DNA of 64,000 bases from Plasmodiophora brassicae. Lineage: Eukaryota. The notes beneath the pieces are model-generated. The model was not told where the DNA came from, did not search any database, and was given only the letters and a program-made list of their open reading frames with translations. Every line of letters begins with the position of its first letter. The stretch's first letter is position 1. The translations under genes were made by a program, and so were the position numbers. The stretch covers positions 620,001-684,000 of the forward strand of contig CP145412.1 of NCBI GenBank assembly GCA_036867785.1, written 5' to 3'. Below are positions 15,204-62,699 of this stretch, one piece after another.

Positions 15204-16397
15204 TCAGTCGAAAGGAAGCGGACGTCTCTGAACGCTGACGGCGCTTGGGACCGCAATCCCACAGCAAGACGGAAATTCACTTGTCGAACAGCAAGCGTCC
15301 GCCCGATGGTCAACGTTTTCATCATCGTCATGGCCGTCTTGAAAGTCGATCAAGGATCCGAACAGGAAGTGCTGCATGATGGGAAGCTTGTTCAGCACTT
15401 CCGCCATGTACATCTTCAACATGCCCGAGTTGACTTTGTCCCATGTCTTCACAGCGGATATGTCGTCCAGCATTGGCGAATGCCATCGCAGCGACGCGCA
15501 GGTCTTGATCGAATTGATGAATTTTATGCATGCGAAGTACAGGTAGTCATCTGCCATCTCATCGACAATATCTTTGTCGCGTATTGCTCGTGGTCGAACA
15601 AATTTGTGTCCTGCAAAGGCCTACCATAAGAGCCGGGTCCCCCATATCAAGCATTCATCGACGTACCCACAAGCTGAGAAGACCCGAACAGGAAGGGCAG
15701 AAAATGGTAATCATCAAGGCCCCAGACACCATGCGACCCAGCAGGCTCCAGCCAGTACTGAAGCTGGAGCTGACGCATCACCTCCATATATCTTTGCACA
15801 ACATCGTCAAAAATGGGTTGGGCGTCAGCAGCAGAACCTTACTTGACAAAGACAGCAAGAACCATCGCTGGGTAGTCATCCGCGCAGACGACGCCCAGCT
15901 TTTCAAGACACAGCAACCAGCACATAAAGTTGGCCTCATGCCCGGTCCCATAATCGATCCGCTGCTGATTGCCAAAGCTCTCTTTGAAGTATCCGCCGAG
16001 CTCAACGATGGCATCTGGCCCAACGCCCGCCGCCTGCATCAGCTCCTCGATGTGCGTTGACACGCGATCATAGAACGTTCGGAATGCTGGATTGCCGAAA
16101 CGCGACATTGCATTATCCACCGGCGGGATTTCATCAGTCCAGCGAAGCAGGCTGTTTAACATGCTCACAATCCTCTCGACACTCTGTAAATCCACGATCA
16201 CAGCACGAACACACGCTCTAGGTTAGCGCACATACCGGCGAGATGGGACCGACATCGGTGATTCGCTTCCCGCGAACGGCACCGTTCAGCCGCTCGATGA
16301 ACGCGACGAATTCGGCGAACGCTTGGCTGTCCCGGAAGCGTGCCAGGCTCTGCGCGCTGACGATGCGCTTGCGCGGCTCACGGAAAGCGATCGCCAT
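15204..16397 (-). CDS. PTPA: Protein phosphatase 2A activator (PTPA/Rrd2), multi-exon
   Basis: [75 protein letters not shown]. Confidence 0.96.
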
Positions 16398-19811: not shown

Positions 19812-21558
19812 ATGGCGATCTTTGAGGGAGCTGGGGAGGCGCGTGACAAACGCGAGACAGTGACGGTGCCACCCGAAAAGTTGGCGTACCGTGGTCGGCA
19901 GTACACCGTTCCAGTCGGCCTGTTCATTAACAACGAATTCGTTCAGTCGGTGTCTGGAAAGAAATTCCCAACAGTTAATCCGTAGGTGCCAAGCCGGAAT
20001 GTTATATACGATTCATCAAAGCTCAGACGCATCTGTTCAGTGCGACCGAAGAGCCGATTCTGGAGTTCTACGAGGGAGACGCCTCCGATGTCGATATCGC
20101 TGTTTCAGCTGCCTCCGCTGCATTTGCTGAATGGTCAAAGGTGGCTCCAGCCACGCGCGGGTTGTTGCTGGCCAAATTGGCAGATCGAATCGAGGCCAAT
20201 GCTGAAGAGCTAGCCGAACTCGAATCACTCGGGAACGGCAAACCGAAATCGGTGGCCTTGCAGGCAGACCTTCCCCTAACAGTCGCAACATTCCGCTACT
20301 ATGCTGGATGGTCAGACAAGATTGTTGGCAAAGTCGTTGACACAAGTCCAGATTTCCACACGTACACACGTCACGAGCCAATCGGGGTCGTGGGCCAGAT
20401 AATCCCTTGGAATTTCCCGCTCCTAATGCTGGTCGGTTTTCTGTTGTTAAGCATATCTCGGTGACCTGACAGCATGAGACAGGCATGGAAAATCGCTCCT
20501 GCTCTGGCATGTGGGAACACTATTGTTTTGAAGGTCGCGACCTGCTCGTACCGTGTCGGACAGAACGTGCTGATACGCCTTGTCAGACCTCCGAGAAGAC
20601 CCCGATGACAGCCTTGAAGATCGCAGAACTAATCGTTGACGTGGGGTTCGCGCCCGGGGTCGTAAATATCATTTCCGGTTATGGGCCTACTGCTGGCCAT
20701 GCAATTGCGACGCATAAAGGTGAAAACAGATTCACTGCAAGGTGAAATAACCTCTCTGACGACAGTTTGTCAGACATCCACAAAGTCGCATTTACGGGTT
20801 CAACGGCGTCAGGCAAGAAGGTCGCGGTCGCCGCCGCTGAATCGAACATGAAGAAGGTCACAATGGAGTTAGGCGGCAAGTCTCCAAACATCATCTTCCC
20901 CGATGCTGATCTTGACCAAGCGTGCCAGTCAGCGTTCATGGGCATCTTCTTCAACTGTGGCCAGTGTTGCTGTGCTGGGTCACGTGTTTTCGTCCACGAG
21001 AAGATTTACGACGCATTCATTGCGAAATTCAAGGCGCTCATGGACCGTTCCTGCGTTGGCGATCCTTTCGACAGCGACACGACGGTCGGGCCAATTGTCG
21101 ATAAGTTGCAGTTTGATCGCGTGTCGAACTACATCAAAGCGGGCATTGCTGAAGGCGCGTCCGTCGAGCATACTGCCAGTAAGCCTAGAAAGAGACGCGG
21201 TTACTTCATTGCGCCAACGCTGTTCACGAACGTCAAAGACGAGATGGGAATCGCGCAAGAGGAGATCTTTGGCCCCGTTGTCTGCGTTCTGAAGTTTTCC
21301 AGGGCGGATGAGGTAATTAAGCGTGCGAATGCAACCACCTATGGTCTCGCAGCTGCTGTCCACACGAAAGATCTGCAAACCGCGATCAAGATGACGAACG
21401 AGCTGCAGGCGGGCACGGTCTGGGTTAACTGCTACAACGTCTTCAACACGGAGATGCCATTCGGGGGATACAAGCAGAGCGGTGTCGGGCGTGAACTTGG
21501 GGAGTACGCCCTCTCCGAGTACACCCAGGTCAAGTCAGTCGTCATGAAGGTCGCCTAG
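19812..21558 (+). CDS. NAD(P)-dependent aldehyde dehydrogenase (ALDH1/2-like), multi-exon
   Basis: [74 protein letters not shown]. Confidence 0.97.
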
Positions 21559-33311: not shown

Positions 33312-35136
33312 TTACGTTGGGCACTTGGACAGGGCGTCCAGGGCGGCAACCCTGTAGGCCTCTGCGAAGCTCGGGTAGTTCCAGATGTTGGTCACCAGGT
33401 AGTCGGCGGTGCCCTGGAAGGCGACGACGGCCTGGCCGATGTGGATGCTCTCGTTGGCGGCGGATCCCAGCGTGTGGACGGAGAGCACGCGCTTCGTGTC
33501 GGGGTCGATCAGCAGCTTCATGAAGCCGGGCCGCTGCAGCATCTGCCCGATGGCCAGCTCGGTGTGGTGCGCGTACCCGGTCACGAACGGGCGCTGCTGC
33601 CGCGTCAGCGCCTGCTGCGTCGGGCCGACGCGGCTGACTTGCGGGATCGAGTTGATCGTGATCGGGATCAGCTCGTCGTCCAGCGACCGCTGTGGGACCG
33701 GCTCGCCGAGTATGTGTCGGGCCGCCTCGAGACCTGCCACGGACGCGTTCAGAACGGTTCGGGCCCCCACTCCCTCCCGTCGTGACCATCGCGCGTACTT
33801 TGGTACCCGCTCAGATACGAGACGCCCGTTTGCGAGATGACGTTCCCGACGGCGTAGATGTGAGGCGCCATCGTCTGCATGTCCCTGTTGACCTTGATGA
33901 AGCCCCTGGAGTCGATGCCGTCCGGGGAGCCCATGGCGGCTTCCAGGTTCAGGTTGTCAGTGTTGCCCGACTTGCTCTGGGCGAACACGGCGACGTCGCC
34001 GACCACGGTTTCGCCCGTGGACAGGGCGACGTGGACCTCGCCCGTCTGCCGGCACGACCAGCGTCAGACAAGGTCGTTACGGGGGGCACGCCGTCGCGTG
34101 TCGAACCGACTGTACGACGTCAACGTCGAGGGCGCGGGCCCCGATTTTGAAGGCGACCCCTTTCTGTCGCATGCGCTCGAACAGACGTCGTCTCATGCCG
34201 TCGTCCATCTGCGGCAACACGTCGGGATTGCTCTCGACGACGGTCGGCTGAACATTGGGCAGGGACGCTGCGTCCACGGTCAACCGCGAGGGGAGGGCAA
34301 CGCTGGCAGGCGCCCCGACCCAAGGTGCTGGCGTATTCGACGCCTTGCACGGTCGCCCCGATGATGATCGGCCGTCGAGGGATGCGATGCGTCAGGTACT
34401 GAAGCATGCGGTCGCACGGTATGATGTGGCGGCCGTCGAACGGGATGTTCGGGTCGTTGACGGTGTGCGACCCGGTCGCTATGATGAAGGCGTCCCTGAG
34501 GCGGACGAGCGTCAGGCGATGATGATGCGGGACGTGTGGGTCGGGAGCCGTTACGCCGTCATCGTGATTGGCCGGTGCATGATCGTGTCGGACACGCGCA
34601 GCATGTGCGGTCCAACGAACCGTGCGACGCCATGCACGACGGCAACGCCGGCGGCGTGCATACGCGCCATCGCCGATTCGGTGGACCATTTCGCGACGCT
34701 CTCGATGCGGTGCAGGATCTGACACGGCGCCGCGTCAGCACGCGACGGCAATCGGCGACGCTGTGCGACGGTAACCGCTTCACGAGATATACGTCGCTGT
34801 GGCCCGTCTGGCTCAGATTCGAACGCGGTTTGCCTCTGCCCGGATAGGTACAGGACCGCTTCGCGAAACGTGAAGAACGGCAGCGCCGCTCCAGTGCTCA
34901 GCGCCAGCTTCAGCGATCCGACCTCCGCCATCGGGTTGACCTAGGCCGAGCGAGGATCTCAGAGGCCCGGGTGCCCGGCGCCGACCCGATATGCAACGCA
35001 CGACGGCGGCCTTCTTGCCCTTCTGCGCGAGGTACTCGGCGGCTCGCTGACCCGCGGGCCCGGACCCGATGACGATCGCGTCCAGGTGCGTGGCGATCGC
35101 CTTCTTGGCCCGCGCAGACGCGCGCGCCGTCGCCAT
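33312..35136 (-). CDS. Soluble pyridine nucleotide transhydrogenase (SthA/UdhA)-like flavoprotein, multi-exon
   Basis: DAIVIGSGPAGQRAA, FREAVLYLSG, IIATGS, HIYAVGNVI, and C-terminal IHIGQAVVAFQGTADYLVTNIWNYPSFAEAYRVAALD. Confidence 0.82.
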
Positions 35137-35521
35137 GGCCTATTGCCGCTGTACAGGAAATCGCTGCAACCTGCGACGGTAGGCACTGCAGAACGGCGCT
35201 CCCACCGCGCCTTCGCCAGCTCTGGCGACGTACAAAAATGACCGCCGATGTCCTCCAACCCTCGCTGTATTACGCCCACGTTTTGCGCCCCTGCCTCGAC
35301 CTGACAGATCCCGCCGATTCTCTCGGGTAGTACACTACAGAACGGCGCGTTTCGCTGCATTTCCCAACGCCTGCCTGTCTCACAGAAGGGTTGGAGTAAT
35401 CGTATCATTAATGGCCCGCTGGGCAGAACACGTCCCAAAATATCACCGACAGTCTTTTTGCGGTGTTCGACCTGCGCATCGCTGCTGCAGAGTCGTCGCC
35501 AGGAGCAGCACCCTCTCGCCC

Positions 35522-37164
35522 ATGGCAGCAGGAAGCGGCGGAACGAGCGGAACGGCCACTCGCAGTCGTGGACGTGGTACAGGGTCAAACCGCGCCGTCA
35601 GCGCGAGTCGCAGCAACAGAGCTGAGGACACAGCTGCGAAGGACCCCCCGGATGGTTGGAAGCTCAGTCATCGGGACGGCATGCCGTCGACGGTCATGAT
35701 GGAAGACCAGTGGGGTTACTGTATGCTTCTCAGAGTCGACTTCTTCCAGTGCAAAGGCCTCGACTGCTTGGCCCTGGATAGGTTGCGATTTCTAACGACG
35801 CAGCACATGAAGGCGTTCCAGCAGCCGTGGCGGTTCGCAACGTCAAAATCAATGGAAAGAGGAGGAGTTCGAAGATGCTGGCGATTGCGGTGGGACAGTA
35901 TGGGGACAAAAGCCAATCGAAGGTATCGCGGATCTTCGCTTCGATCCCTAAGTCCTTGACTGCCCCGAACTCTTGGGGGGCTACTCCTGCGGGATGCCAG
36001 GATCTGGCCAACACCTTGTTCGCACCACAGTCTCCAACTTCCCTGGACGAACTGCGTGCAATGGTGGAGGAACGCTTGCGACTTTCCTGCGCAGTCCCCA
36101 CACTTGGGCAGCGTTGCGCTGATTGGTTCACTCTTCGACAGTTCAGGTTCACCGGCACTATGGTTGGCACGTTCCTTAGTACTGCTTCAGCATTGCGTGC
36201 TGCGTTCGGTTGGTCAGCCAACTCGCCCGAACGGCCGCTGAGAGACTGGCTATGCGATCTGTGCCGTTCATAGTTTGTACCATCCAAATCGACGGAACCT
36301 GTGAGTCGCGGGACTGCAACAGAACCAGCAATTCTCTGAGGGCCGCATGCTCGCTGACGTTACGTGGTAGGCGACTGGAATCGCAGACGTCGTCGAAACA
36401 GAACTCGGATCTGACATTATCTATGCATGCGTCGAAGCGAAAACGAGCGTGTCAGAGGACTCTCAAGCAGACAGGCGGCGTCCGGCGTCTCTGGAACTCG
36501 TTGAATGCGAACTGAGCGATTCGGTCTTCCTCGAACATGTCGATCCCAGCCACATTGGGCAGCTGGTCGCCCAGTTTCTCGTGACCCAGCTTGGATACGT
36601 GCTGTATCTGTGCGTTAGCGAAAGAGGCCTCCTCTTCGGGTGCCTGATCAAGGAGAATGCGGTCTTGACCGCACGGGGTGTCGACGTCTTGCAGAGTTTC
36701 GCCCCTCTGTGTTTCTGGGCATGCGAAACTGTGCAAGAAGTCGACACCTGTGCGGTCAAGACCGCATTCTCCTTGATGAGGCACCCGAAGAGGAGGCCTC
36801 TTTCGCTAACGCACAGGTACAGCACGTATCCAAACTGGGTCACGAGAAACTGGGGGACCAGCTGCCCAATGTGGCTGGGATCGACATGTTCGAGGAAGAC
36901 CGAATCGCTCAGTTCGCATTCAACGAGTTCCAGAGACGCCGGACGCCGCCTGTCTGCTTGAGAGTCCTCTGACACGCTCGTTTTCGCTTCGACGCATGCA
37001 TAGATAATGTCAGATCCGAGTTCTGTTTCGACGACTGCGATTCCATCAGGAGAACACGCCAGCCATGAGCGCGCTGTTCTGGCCAAAAGGCCGCATACGT
37101 AGATGCTTCGAATGGGACCACGTAACGTCAACGAGCATGCGGCCTTCAGAATTACAGACTGCAT
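35522..37164. pseudogene. Decayed YqaJ/lambda-exonuclease-like PD-(D/E)XK nuclease gene, probably transposon-derived, present as two opposed fragments
   Basis: Plus strand: GQRCADWFTLRQFRFTGT. Minus strand: CGLL...WLACSPDG...VEAKT...HIGQL..QFLVT...YVLY. Frameshifts and stops are present. Confidence 0.7.
36330..37153. repeat. Long inverted repeat (fold-back palindrome)
   Basis: Main arms 36376-36702 and 36723-37045 around a 20-nt loop, plus outer arms 36330-36368 and 37117-37153. Confidence 0.97.
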
Positions 37165-37246
37165 TCCGCTCGCTGCTACGCCGAGTGTTCATAATTGGAC
37201 AAGGGCACGCCTGTGCTCTGACCGGAAATAGTGCGCGGCTGGGACA

Positions 37247-37706
37247 ATGGCGGAGCATGACTCGCGGGCCGTTGCGAGTGGCGGGTTGCTGTGTTCGTGC
37301 CGCAAAGCGGTCGGCGAGTTCTGCCCGGACGTCGCTGTTGCCGGCGGCGACGACGATAGCCTATCGATCGAGCTGACGGACGAGATGAAGCAGTTTCTGG
37401 TGCGGTCGAAAAGGCGCCGGATCGAGCGCCAAGAACAACGCCGCGCCGCCGACGCTGAACGAGCCCGGAGAGAATGTAGGCAAGCGTTGGCGGTACTTGC
37501 TCTGGTCTATTCGTTGAATGATGCATGTAGATACGCAAGAGCGGGAGAAGAAGTCTAAGGAACGTGCTGCGCGGGCCATACTCTTTGGCAGTCGCGTCGA
37601 TGAAATTGACTCTCTAGAACAGCAGTTAAGCGCTCGGTTTGACGAGTCCGTTCGCCGGCACAACTCTGCACTCTGGCCTGCAGTAGCGTTGTCGTTTGGC
37701 AGGTAG
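37247..37706 (+). CDS. GEMIN8: Gemin8-like protein (SMN complex), 2 exons
   Basis: IELTDEMKQFLVRSKRRRIERQEQ and LFGSRVDEIDSLEQQLSARFD...LWPAVALSF match the conserved Gemin8 C-terminal pattern (LYG...IQAME...FD...YWPVIPL). Confidence 0.7.
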
Positions 37707-37811
37707 TACAATATACTACAAACGGCCAGTAACAGGACGCCAGATATGCTCACCGTGTGCGCCCGCAGGGCACGCGCCGTACTCCAGCCATTATAGTTTC
37801 AACTGGTCAGC

Positions 37812-38195
37812 ATGAAGCCCCCGATGGTAACAGCGGCTGCTTACCCTGCTGAGGTCCACGCCGTCGTTGCGACGTTACTCGTCCTTCTTCTTGTCGCGTC
37901 CCTGGTCGCCGCTTGGCGGCGCCGTCGGCGGGGTGTCAGCCCTGCGCTGCGTACTCAAAGCACGTCGCAAACCACGATGCCGTTTGCTGTGGACCCAGCG
38001 CACCCCAAGGCTCTACAGCTTCTGGTCGGGACCGACAGCTCTGATGACGATGGCGACGGTTGTAAGCTATCCAAGGGACGTGTGGGGTCCATCATTCCGT
38101 TGTCGCCCGTGAGCTACGTGAAGTCCCCAGCAACGTTCCAACCTCGACGAAGCATGAGCCCTGCACCCCAAGCAGCCAGCGACGATGCGGTTTGA
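37812..38195 (+). CDS. Small single-pass membrane protein, hypothetical
   Basis: 127-aa ORF with an N-terminal TM followed by an RRRRR stop-transfer signal. Confidence 0.55.
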   Translation: MKPPMVTAAAYPAEVHAVVATLLVLLLVASLVAAWRRRRRGVSPALRTQSTSQTTMPFAVDPAHPKALQLLVGTDSSDDDGDGCKLSKGRVGSIIPLSPVSYVKSPATFQPRRSMSPAPQAASDDAV

Positions 38196-38266
38196 AACTG
38201 TTGTACAGCACAATAATTTAACAGCATGACATTGTGGGCAATGCCAGGATGTCACAGAGTACTGAA

Positions 38267-39661
38267 TCATAGGCGGCTCGGTAGCTTCGAGCGGACAATC
38301 GTGGCCGAAATCATCCCATGTGGCTCATCCGTTGGCAGGTAGACGTCGTTGTTGAACTGACGCGACGAGTCAGTCTTAGGAGACGATGAGCACGCTGTGC
38401 AATACCTTCAGCCCAATTGGCGCCAGGTTCATCGGAATGTAGTGGATGTTCGCTGAAGGAAGGAAGCCCTTAGCACATGTTGCGTTCGGAAACGTCAATG
38501 ATTCGCACTAACGCATGCTGAGAGTAACAGAAGCGACCTCTTTGCACGATTTGACGACTGCTGCACCCATATCGTATAACTGCATATGGGATTCAATGAA
38601 ACCGTCTCGTTATCAGATGAGCATCTGCTAGGTACCGTTTTCTGAACAGACGGCGAATACGCGCCGCCTTTGGAGGGGTCGCCGAAAAACTCCTTCATCA
38701 GCGTGTCATGGACGAGCGCTCTGATCTTCCCAAACTCAAGTTCCCGTAGAGATTCGGTTGGCACGTATCTGGCGGACCCGTTCCTCAGATCGGTACGGAT
38801 GTCATTACGAGTGCCTGACATACGTCCACTGCGCACTGACACATGTTGCCAGAAGCCGATCGGAAACTTCGGGCAGCGTCGTGCGGGAGCACTTTGCAAA
38901 TCCCTCGAACCCGCTCTAACGACGAATCAGTGCACTGCAAGAGGATTAATCGGACCATGGCAACCATGGTCGTCTTAAGTACGATCAAGTCCTTCAATCC
39001 CGATTTCAACTTCACAGACGAGCGTGTTGCCACAAGGTCGACAGTGTCGTAATGGTCTGTCATTCGAGTGAACCCTGTCAGGTCAAGCGTCATTACAGAA
39101 CCATTTGGCTGGTGACGCGCGCGGCGGCTACCATGAGAATGAGGCTTCCCATTGACGTTGACCCGATCCCAAGGTTTAACGTCGATCTCGATTCGAACCT
39201 GACCGAGGGCATGTCAACAGAAGCTCTTCGTACAGCCAACCAACGTCATACCTCACTGATAACAGCGTACGATGACAGGAACAGATCGGCAAGCACAAAC
39301 CTGAACCAGGGTATGAGACACGATTCGATTGAGGTGCCCTCGCCGTCACGCTACGCGAAAGCATCGGCAGTTGTAAACTTTGTAAACGATTTCGCGGCAG
39401 CGTTAACGGTGTTCTTGATCGTATCCGTCGGGACGACCGCTGTCGGACGTGGTAAGCACGCCACTGCGTATTCGGGCAGGAACGCGCCGCGCCCGTACCG
39501 CTATTATCGCCATCCGTGTACGCGGGCGCGGACTCGGACAGGACCGTCACGCGAACCGACATCTCCAGCACGCGGTGACGATCCCCGCGCGACCGGTCAA
39601 CGACCATGACCCGGACCCGGTTCTTCCCATGGCAATGCGACGCCAGCGTCACTCCTGTCAT
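38267..39661 (-). CDS. UOX: Urate oxidase (uricase), peroxisomal, multi-exon
   Basis: HGKNRVRV, YTDGDNS, VVPTDTIKNTV, SGLKDLIVLKTT, YSPSVQKT, NIHY, VYLPTDEPHG, and C-terminal PTS1 -SRL. Confidence 0.95.
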
Positions 39662-43315: not shown

Positions 43316-44289
43316 CTAATACAGGATCTTCTTGAATCTCTGCTGCTCCCATACGGCGTTCCGGTTTGGAAACGATCCGGGCAGTCGTCGACTAGGTACA
43401 ACGGGGGCAGTCATAGGGGTATACGACTGTGCACTAACGACGCCGGATCGGTAGAGTGACCCGTCACCACAACTGGTACGGTACGTACGTAGGTGGGAGG
43501 AGGCTATGGAATTGTTAAAAACAGAGAATGGCTGGTTGAGTGTAAAATACATGTATTTTACACGTAAAAAACATGTTTAAAACAGCAGGGGGCTGCGCCC
43601 CCCGCGCAGTACGCCTTCATACCATGGTCACGGTCCTGACAACCCGACCAGATTCGATGACCTCTTCGTCACCAACGGGGTACAAGTGTGTGTCCGAAAT
43701 CGCCTCGGGAAGTGTGCCTGGCTCGGCAATGCCAACGAACCCTGCGAACTCCAGTCGAGTTGCGTCTTCGTCATCGGAATCATCGTCTGGCTCTTCGTCA
43801 AATTTGACGAAGAGCCTTAGGCGAAGCAAGCGACCGGCCGGTTCAACGTGTGAAGGGAGTCATCTCGCGTATCTTTGTACGGCGAGTCATCTGGGCACTT
43901 TAATGCGATCCCAGTTCCTTGTTCGACGTTGCATCCCGATAGTCGAGCGCGTAGCCGGGAGTGCACGTGGTTGCAGGGCTCGTGATTCCGCTCGCCCCCG
44001 ACGACGACGACGCGCACGCGCAACGAAGGCTCTGGGACGGATCGGGAAACCCTTACGTTACCTGTATTTTACAGTGTAAAGTTGGTTCCTGGGTAGTGTA
44101 TTTTACACGTAAAAAACAGGCTTGTAAAAAACACCCCTTCATTACAACAATTCCATAGAGGAGGCCCCATACGGAGTTGGGATGGCGCTGTCGCCGTTGG
44201 CGAAGAAGAGCCTGACCTTGGGGGCGTTCACTCTCATGTGCTACCTCGGCGTCGTGTACCGTATCGAGGTATGAATCGTGCGCTACCAT
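43316..44289 (-). pseudogene. Putative ~85-aa gene interrupted by the transposon at 43505-44157
   Basis: Removing the element and one TSD fuses ...NSVWGLL to PPT. A GTACGT...CGTTAG intron then leads in frame to AQSYTP...RFKKILY*. Confidence 0.4.
43505..44157 (+). mobile_element. Non-autonomous TIR DNA transposon (MITE-like, hAT-type 8-bp TSD), copy 1
   Basis: 12-bp TIR TATGGAATTGTT...AACAATTCCATA. TSD GAGGAGGC at 43497-43504 and 44158-44165. Length 653 bp. Confidence 0.95.
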
Positions 44290-54302: not shown

Positions 54303-54493
54303 ATTGTTATTTGTTGAAACAAATCAACTGCGAAATGGCTACCGGGCCTGCGCGAGGACATGGTCCACCTCTACGGAGCACACCGGATGTCTGCCATTAC
54401 AATATGGGCAAAGTGAGACCCGTAGAGGTGGACCATGTCCTCGCGCAGTCGCGGTAGCCATTTCGCATTTGATTTGTTGAAACAAGCAACAAT
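54303..54493. repeat. Inverted repeat hairpin, 74-bp arms with a 43-nt loop
   Basis: 54303-54376 is the near reverse complement of 54420-54493, with a perfect core ctgcgcgaggacatggtccacctctacgg. Confidence 0.95.
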
Positions 54494-54967: not shown

Positions 54968-55040
54968 GCCTCTTTAGCTCAGTTGGCAGAGCATCCGCTT
55001 CGTAAGCGGGAGGTCGTGGGTTCGATCCCCATTGGAGGCA
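54968..55040 (+). tRNA. tRNA-Thr(CGT)
   Basis: 73 nt. Acceptor stem GCCTCT/GGAGGC, D-arm TAGCTCAGTTGGCAGAGC, anticodon loop TT-CGT-AA, T-loop GTTCGATCC. Confidence 0.95.
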
Positions 55041-55162
55041 CATGCTTTTCACGATCGTTCGGCTCTCCGTCCGGCGTGATTTTCTTTTTTTCCGATGCCA
55101 TCAGGAGTAACGTCGTCGCTCTGTCAGTCCCATTTCGAGTTCGGGTGCCCCTGAACAAGGGA

Positions 55163-61975: not shown

Positions 61976-62628
61976 TATGGAATTGTTGTAATGAAGGGGT
62001 GTTTTTTACAAGCCTGTTTTTTACGTGTAAAATACACTACCCAGGAACCAACTTTACACTGTAAAATACAGGTAACGTAAGGGTTTCCCGATCCGTCCCA
62101 GAGCCTTCGTTGCGCGTGCGCGTCGTCGTCGTCGGGGGCGAGCGGAATCACGAGCCCTGCAACCACGTGCACTCCCGGCTACGCGCTCGACTATCGGGAT
62201 GCAACGTCGAACAAGGAACTGGGATCGCATTAAAGTGCCCAGATGACTCGCCGTACAAAGATACGCGAGATGACTCCCTTCACACGTTGAACCGGCCGGT
62301 CGCTTGCTTCGCCTAAGGCTCTTCGTCAAATTTGACGAAGAGCCAGACGATGATTCCGATGACGAAGACGCAACTCGACTGGAGTTCGCAGGGTTCGTTG
62401 GCATTGCCGAGCCAGGCACACTTCCCGAGGCGATTTCGGACACACACTTGTACCCCGTTGGTGACGAAGAGGTCATCGAATCTGGTCGGGTTGTCAGGAC
62501 CGTGACCATGGTATGAAGGCGTACTGCGCGGGGGGCGCAGCCCCCTGCTGTTTTAAACATGTTTTTTACGTGTAAAATACATGTATTTTACACTCAACCA
62601 GCCATTCTCTGTTTTTAACAATTCCATA
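61976..62628 (-). mobile_element. Non-autonomous TIR DNA transposon, copy 2 (inverted relative to copy 1)
   Basis: Same 653-bp length and TIRs as copy 1. TSD GTCGAGCA at 61968-61975 and 62629-62636. Confidence 0.95.
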
Positions 62629-62699
62629 GTCGAGCAGCTGCTGCGCCCAGCCAGCGCCGTCATTTTGGTATTTGTGGGTCGGGGGCGGGTCGTTGGGCC

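Follow-up and report, generated by a model that had tools for sequence, protein, structure and literature searches.

In maize, the naturally occurring locus Mu killer (Muk) holds part of a transposase gene as an inverted duplication beside a host gene, and read-through from the flanking gene has been proposed to give a long hairpin RNA and, from it, small interfering RNAs (siRNAs) (PMC3440606). Inverted duplications of Ac/Ds elements, formed by alternative transposition, have also been reported to trigger siRNA silencing (bioRxiv 10.1101/2020.01.07.897926). Here we describe a locus of comparable anatomy in Plasmodiophora brassicae (assembly GCA_036867785.1), a fold-back palindrome within positions 35522–37164 of a 64,000-nucleotide stretch of contig CP145412.1 (positions 620,001–684,000 of the forward strand; this whole stretch is referred to as the window, and coordinates are those of the window). 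The duplicated DNA appears to derive from a YqaJ-type exonuclease gene, and an earlier note made from the sequence alone had proposed the palindrome as a candidate hairpin-RNA (hpRNA) locus targeting a nuclease-carrying transposon family. In our reading it is probably a neutral scar that fold-back repair or replication left in the remnant of a dead transposon, with a latent capacity to form a hairpin.

The likeness to Muk lies in the architecture, since in the window, too, part of a transposase gene is duplicated in inverted orientation alongside a host gene. However, Muk includes the terminal repeat of its element and has a known active target, MuDR, whereas the window locus lacks element ends. 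It also has no known target, and no hairpin transcript was seen. The hairpin of Muk is ~4 kb, against arms of ~0.33–0.43 kb in the window. With the Ac/Ds duplications the locus shares an origin as a transposon-derived inverted duplication, but alternative transposition needs active ends, whereas the break in the window lies inside coding sequence and the ends are absent.

The palindrome is built from two inner arms, 36376–36702 and 36723–37045, which are ~98% complementary in a gapped alignment and enclose a 20-nt loop (36703–36722), and from two outer arms of 34 nt, 36335–36368 on the plus strand and 37117–37150 on the minus strand, which the repeat search found to be 94% complementary. The same search placed the inner arms at 36389–36677 and 36747–37035 (289 nt, 98% complementary), and blastn of the region against itself matched 36376–37045 to its own reverse complement at 94.5% over 675 columns. 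The coordinates given in the earlier note all hold. Within the gapped alignment the inner arms form three blocks, 36376–36385 against 37045–37036 with no mismatches, 36389–36674 against 37035–36750 with four, and 36676–36702 against 36749–36723 with three, and the left arm has one 3-nt and one 1-nt indel; the substitutions between arms are a mixture of transitions and transversions. Inner and outer arms are spaced by 7 nt on the left (36369–36375) and by 71 nt on the right (37046–37116), and this difference of 64 nt agrees with the gap of about 64 nt that had been noticed in the plus-strand copy. An arm 60-mer occurs exactly once per strand in the window (0.00 expected, 100 shuffles). Folded as RNA, 36320–37165 has a predicted energy of −773.6 kcal/mol, compared with −299 ± 7.5 for shuffled sequences (z = −63). 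Repeats, alignment and RNA fold therefore agree on one feature sought in an hpRNA locus, an inverted transposon duplication with a short spacer; a 325-bp double-stranded RNA hairpin would form only if transcription crosses the loop, and no transcript of that kind was seen.

The palindrome is genuine, as every junction is reproduced by contigs from two DNA studies. At least half of the sampled words of 35522–37400 were contained in 20 of the 24 runs listed (eight studies), and four runs were aligned to the window: the DNA runs X1 (study P1, possibly the source sample of the window assembly) and X3 (study P2, a plant metagenome), and the RNA runs X15 and X17. Both DNA runs gave the identical four contigs, 34500–36418, 36389–36645, 36616–36808 and 37006–38500, with the 193-nt contig 36616–36808 passing from the last part of the left arm through the loop into the first part of the right. 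The contigs break only where breaks are unavoidable in a k = 31 graph, 30 nt within stretches that are identical between the arms. The depth of the centre contig was about half that of its flanks (32.3 against 70 in X1 and 34.9 against 67–76 in X3); contig depth is not equal to copy number, and the lower value could reflect under-sampled snap-back fragments or a coexisting variant from which the centre is deleted.

Identification of the duplicated DNA came through its relatives. A Pfam search for YqaJ, which the earlier note had suggested as a check, failed in its direct form, none of the four window ORFs (open reading frames) matching any family at E ≤ 1 and the 156-residue peptide of the right arm (P0001) matching no family on rescanning; it succeeded indirectly, in that relatives of up to 40% identity carry the YqaJ family PF09588. 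PHROGs gave a weak match to a RecE-like exonuclease (E = 0.37), and a word-indexed search of the peptide against longer proteins found nothing. With the peptide as query, an exhaustive HMMER search of 1.84 billion protein representatives returned 95 proteins at E ≤ 1e-3, including 18 at E ≤ 1e-10. The best relative was a protein of Gracilariopsis chorda (E = 1.9e-17, 40% identity), which bears the UniRef name YqaJ viral recombinase domain-containing, and further relatives came from Agarophyton chilense, transcriptomes of the Marine Microbial Eukaryote Transcriptome Sequencing Project (MMETSP) and unnamed contigs. Ten top relatives were chosen for scanning; PF09588 was present at E ≤ 0.01 in seven and exceeded the 22-bit cut-off in four (P0002, P0003, P0005 and P0012), with nothing found in three.

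An alignment of the peptide with 91 relatives (A2, 92 sequences) left out P0013, P0068, P0088 and P0091, because these are repeat proteins that match in many stretches. Residues 33–92 of the arm peptide match the repeat proteins in up to eight stretches (P0068: DUF7623/calpain), a match which is probably compositional. PF09588 was detected at E ≤ 1e-3 in 17 of the 92 members of A2, and the only nearly invariant columns were D48, E67, K69, Q109 and Q113 of the peptide, corresponding to the nuclease's Asp, its Glu-x-Lys and its pair of Gln residues. All five residues are kept in the right arm. The left arm is without the catalytic Asp because of the 64-nt deletion, and alignment with the relatives bears out that the gap removed the CGLL...SPD motif from this copy; the peptide motifs quoted in the earlier note were all found in the ORF translations. 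A structure model of the peptide built on A2 (predicted local distance difference test, pLDDT, 87.1; predicted template modelling score, pTM, 0.83) had lambda exonuclease as its best PDB match in Foldseek (3slp_A, E = 6.3e-5, TM 0.59–0.61), and all ten PDB matches at E ≤ 0.001 were to lambda exonuclease, LHK-Exo or the mimivirus R354 nuclease. Homology to Pfam-positive relatives, the conserved D/E-K/Q-Q residues and the predicted fold thus support the duplicated DNA as an internal fragment of a YqaJ/lambda-exonuclease-type PD-(D/E)XK nuclease, the catalytic region which had been read from its motifs. The predicted fold and the D...E-x-K motif agree with lambda exonuclease, RecE and LHK-Exo, but identity to these is only 14–19%, and the gene in the window survives as a broken fragment instead of a functional enzyme.

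How much of the parent gene survives was seen in a six-frame scan of the 64-kb window (hmmsearch) with a family profile made from an alignment of 12 long members (A1, 1008 positions), which found three pieces only, within profile positions 399–752. The first, pseudogene segment A, lies at 35785–36336 on the plus strand (profile 399–597, independent E-value (iE) 3.5e-30) and comprises the pre-nuclease region and the N-terminal third of the YqaJ-like domain, with the motifs QRCADWF..RQFR.TGT and RGT..EP; BLASTP matches it to P0002 at E = 4e-23, and tblastn with ten relatives also matches it. The second is a nuclease-core piece at 36371–36736 (plus strand, profile 627–752, iE 5.4e-21) which runs through the loop, and the third is the inverted nuclease piece, 37125–36751 on the minus strand (profile 602–730, iE 7.5e-32). 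The DDE core (profile 1–398) and the C-terminal third (753–1008) are absent from the 64-kb window. Furthermore, the plus-strand frame is disrupted by a frameshift near 35780, a TAG at 36271–36273, a TGA at 36337–36339 and the 64-nt deletion. On this strand lies the nuclease's N-terminal third, with the stops at 36271 and 36337, and the complete core is found solely on the opposite strand. The locus has no complete uninterrupted nuclease domain, and the stops and frameshift persist in RNA because the RNA contigs are unspliced. A 145-codon ORF with an ATG (35522–35959, plus strand), which starts at the first coordinate of the feature as originally delimited, may hold a weak trace of the transposase N-terminus, its residues 60–104 aligning with 158–213 of P0099 in a single BLASTP comparison (E = 0.006) that the family hidden Markov model (HMM) does not support.

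Neither transposon ends nor a target-site duplication were found at the locus, where short, low-identity inverted matches were judged to be chance, and tblastn and HMM scans detected no other copies of the element in the 64-kb window. Weak matches near 17.2 kb (E 0.035–9) were supported neither by ORFs there nor by the profile. Most likely, the locus is what remains of a transposase gene, dead and internally truncated so that just the middle third of its protein is left; it lies in plus orientation in a 2-kb gap between two host genes.

The loop shows which of the two copies came first. Its plus strand extends the parental frame as PLCFWA, with the Trp codon at 36716–36718, and this Trp (W784) is invariant in the 12 sequences of A1; in addition, the match to the profile on the plus strand crosses the loop and reaches position 752, whereas the minus-strand match stops at 730. 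Because this Trp, invariant in the family, is encoded by the loop in plus orientation, we take the left copy, whose inner arm carries the nuclease core in sense (E-x-K and GQ..Q motifs), as parental and the right arm as its reverse copy. The latter begins directly after codon 36719–36721 and occupies 36723–37150 (428 nt), equivalent to parental 36335–36702 plus the 64 nt missing from the parental copy. Its nuclease frame is open along the inner arm (minus strand), and the 71-nt segment 37046–37116, present in the inverted copy only, encodes CGLL...WLACSPD and with it the catalytic Asp. Homology to the element ends at ~37150, with the outer right arm.

Such a pattern is to be expected after a break and subsequent snap-back priming, or after a template switch during replication, and not after two independent insertions. 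The 3′ end of the parental copy would have broken directly after the conserved Trp-Ala, and the broken end would have folded back, or replication would have switched template, such that ~430 nt were copied in reverse. The inverted duplication would then have been joined to unrelated downstream DNA at ~37150, with the later loss of 64 nt from the parental (left) copy and a drift of ~2% between the copies. The fold-back origin is cleanly readable here, the loop being parental coding sequence, so the direction of copying is evident. We regard the locus as a well-documented case of a familiar phenomenon, local duplication by fold-back within the fragment of a dead transposon.

The more useful by-product of the analysis is the parent family, single-ORF elements bounded by terminal inverted repeats (TIRs) that appear to carry a lambda-exonuclease-type nuclease within a piggyBac-like transposase. 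Two stretches of the A1 profile, on either side of the nuclease, matched the piggyBac transposase 6x67/6x68 (E = 1.1e-6), one with the region of the first catalytic Asp and the other with the YN.TKGGVD motif, and ~500 profile positions lie between the two stretches compared with ~130 residues in the solved protein. In P0034 and P0100 the transposase domain DDE_Tnp_1_7 (PF13843) is found N-terminal to YqaJ at 29.8–29.9 bits (cut-off 22.4), the match spanning positions 20–228 of the Pfam profile, and in P0097 the final 47 positions of DDE_Tnp_1_7 are weakly matched C-terminal to YqaJ. Only one of the 92 members of A2 has PF13843 at E ≤ 1e-3, hence support for piggyBac comes mostly from the family profile. 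Since this profile matches piggyBac on both sides of the nuclease, sequence comparison places the nuclease of the relatives within one ORF for a piggyBac-like transposase, after the second catalytic Asp and before the third, at a position named the "insertion domain".

Relatives were encoded at 28 metagenome loci (L001–L028), ten of which gave the order DDE part, nuclease, KGGVD in one match. One of the loci, L011 (4557–9945), has a single ORF of 1353 aa between TIRs of ~40 nt, 5.4 kb apart, which read CCC...GGG and have ATAT on both flanks. Its YqaJ score is 21.7 bits, against a cut-off of 22, and the right-arm peptide matches the ORF at E = 3e-9; judged by its ORF and termini, this element looks intact. 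A 28-nt repeat was found at L005, and three of the five metagenome loci checked have no terminal repeats. The ORFs of relatives are 900–1350 aa long, in single-ORF elements, and have a Cys-rich C-terminus, and the family ranges over red algae, MMETSP transcriptomes of marine protists and aquatic metagenomes.

An ISL2EU-type parent had been suggested for the duplicated DNA. ISL2EU elements, of the PHIS superfamily, are likewise eukaryotic cut-and-paste elements with a YqaJ exonuclease domain; in ISL2EU, however, the YqaJ protein is a separate second ORF (PMC4482050, PMC4122938) beside a Harbinger-kind THAP/helix-turn-helix (HTH) DDE transposase. The relatives of the window copy instead carry the nuclease in one long ORF with piggyBac flanks (PF13843, 6x67/6x68), and the suggestion has to be given up. 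The piggyBac element of Trichoplusia ni (6x67/6x68) resembles the family on both sides of the nuclease and in its Cys-rich C-terminus, but in the family the second catalytic Asp is separated from the third by ~500 residues that include a YqaJ-type nuclease, and from the window copy the DDE part is absent. A precedent for an exonuclease inserted between the catalytic residues of a DDE transposase is Dada, in which a DEDDy exonuclease occupies such a position and is proposed to process cleaved ends (PMC3706591). Dada belongs to another transposase superfamily, and its nuclease is a DnaQ-like 3′–5′ enzyme as opposed to the lambda-exonuclease-like PD-(D/E)XK nuclease of the window family. A search of titles and abstracts, with Repbase and the supplements of the PHIS paper (ISL2EU lists) outside its range, found no description of YqaJ within piggyBac, and the architecture of the parent family may be undescribed so far.

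Transcription around the remnant was read from X15 and X17, which are not recorded as RNA and were recognised as such by spliced joints alone. They share five intron-like joints of 57, 61, 55, 66 and 49 nt, GT..AG or CT..AC, that were not seen in the DNA runs. The first exon and 5′ end of the upstream gene, for a Si-specific NAD(P)+ transhydrogenase-like flavoprotein, lie at 35000–35211 on the minus strand, pointing away from the remnant; its RNA contigs end at 35128 (X15) and 35211 (X17), and CT..AC introns at 34719–34775 and 34939–34999 are skipped in RNA. The transhydrogenase name of this gene (ORF 33312–35139, minus strand) comes from the source annotation of homologues, and its best named relatives are bacterial (41–54% identity), with one oomycete protein at 45%. 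Unspliced RNA contigs then cover a transcribed, non-coding stretch of the pseudogene, 35429–36640, with 35429–36385 in X17 and 35499–36640 in X15, both with no other letters and no gaps. The strand of this RNA is not readable from the contigs. At the arm mismatches 36569, 36590 and 36607 the X15 contig has the letters of the left arm, and the silent gap together with the skipped introns argues against DNA contamination as the source of the contigs. On the simplest reading, the left RNA probably starts from a divergent promoter common with the upstream gene.

On the other side, contigs of the downstream mRNA begin inside the right arm, at 36991 (X17) and 37022 (X15). The first exon of this host gene spans 36991–37475 (plus strand), with its likely ATG at 37247, and is followed by GT..AG introns at 37476–37530 and 37699–37764. 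Across the centre of the palindrome there were no RNA contigs over 36641–36990 in X15 or 36386–36990 in X17, and contigs cannot prove absence. At 38357–38405, one RNA contig carries the GT..AG introns of the plus-strand gene and then a CT..AC intron, and for this reason the 3′ ends of the downstream gene and of the minus-strand gene that follows appear to overlap.

Several other explanations of the palindrome were weighed against these observations. That it is a chimeric snap-back read product of assembly or library preparation, instead of genomic DNA, is hardly credible, as the same centre contig and the same junctions were obtained in runs from two studies, the sampled words are widespread among the listed runs, and seven mismatches and two indels between the arms are unexpected from such an artefact; the half depth of the centre contig in both DNA runs, and the fact that the DNA evidence consists of short-read contigs only, are what speaks for it. 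Nested head-to-head insertions of DNA transposons do occur, and two copies inserted in this manner and later trimmed could leave inverted arms with no local fold-back duplication. Here this is very improbable, because the arms are ~98% identical to each other and share only 30–40% protein identity with any relative, the junction between the copies falls precisely on 20 nt that prolong the parental reading frame, and ends of either copy were not found. A third possibility is that the downstream gene has recruited the palindrome for its regulation, with the right arm supplying the start and 5′ untranslated region and pairing with left-arm RNA. In two studies the downstream mRNA contigs do have their start within the right arm, the RNA of X15 contains the complementary sequence of the left arm, and 45 nt (36389–36433 with 36991–37035) as well as the 34-nt outer arms would be available for pairing, the 45 nt perfectly. 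Yet there would be no pairing if the left RNA, whose strand the contigs do not give, were antisense, and a start site inside inserted sequence is common and needs no selection; we consider such a role improbable.

A Mu killer-like function, in which read-through from the promoter at ~35429 would give the 325-bp hairpin, to be diced into siRNAs that silence piggyBac-like/YqaJ elements, has the anatomy of the maize locus on its side, an inverted transposase-coding duplication beside a host promoter (PMC3440606). The predicted stem is also very stable, the X15 RNA contig runs from the left flank into the left arm, to 36640, and the arms are much better preserved than the reading frame. We nevertheless hold it to be unlikely, given that the DNA contigs contain no other copy with common 31-mers (34500–36418 is unbranched), that the best relative is only 40% identical among 1.84 billion representatives, that JGI (Joint Genome Institute) metagenome contigs hold no close relative of the right-arm peptide, and that the abundant downstream mRNA of X15 starts at 37022 and does not continue from the arm. 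In a bolder form, the fold-back would be a working "transposon killer" whose hairpin, made from a host promoter, yields small RNAs that keep the family out, or, as a variant, whose left-arm RNA tunes the downstream gene. This we rate as rather doubtful; if true, it would explain why only this remnant is seen, and small RNAs, if found, would make the locus a natural Mu killer-type locus outside plants.

The neutral scar that we favour has its own difficulties. Neutrality is something that we only infer, and the arms are still ~98% alike despite a badly decayed gene, a likeness that could come from a recent event, from gene conversion or from selection for pairing. Transcription of the left arm supplies some of the features that an hpRNA locus requires, and a diced hairpin would be depleted from ordinary RNA sequencing. 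Contigs give no strand, copies that have diverged or share only 21–30-mers would escape them, and intact parents may exist elsewhere in the genome. The direct Pfam scan of the window ORFs was negative, and with no ends or target-site duplication at the locus it is homology alone that carries the step from insertion to remnant.

Elsewhere in the window, a 654-nt inverted repeat (43504–44157 and 61976–62629) is 100% complementary with its copies 17.8 kb apart, and its edges, near 43546 and 44097, have a short motif in common. A recent inverted duplication, two ends of one element and an effect of assembly are all conceivable origins. A second, smaller fold-back has arms of 81 nt (54303–54383 and 54413–54493, 88% complementary) around a 29-nt spacer and lies ~480 nt upstream of a tRNA-Thr(CGT) gene at 54968–55041, which was the only hit of the Rfam and tRNA scans and is far from the palindrome described above. 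Three neighbouring ORFs look like ordinary eukaryotic housekeeping genes, namely that at 33312–35139 discussed above, one at 15839–16222 (minus strand), which we take to encode a PTPA-like phosphatase activator, and one at 19979–20464 (plus strand), presumably an aldehyde dehydrogenase-like exon.

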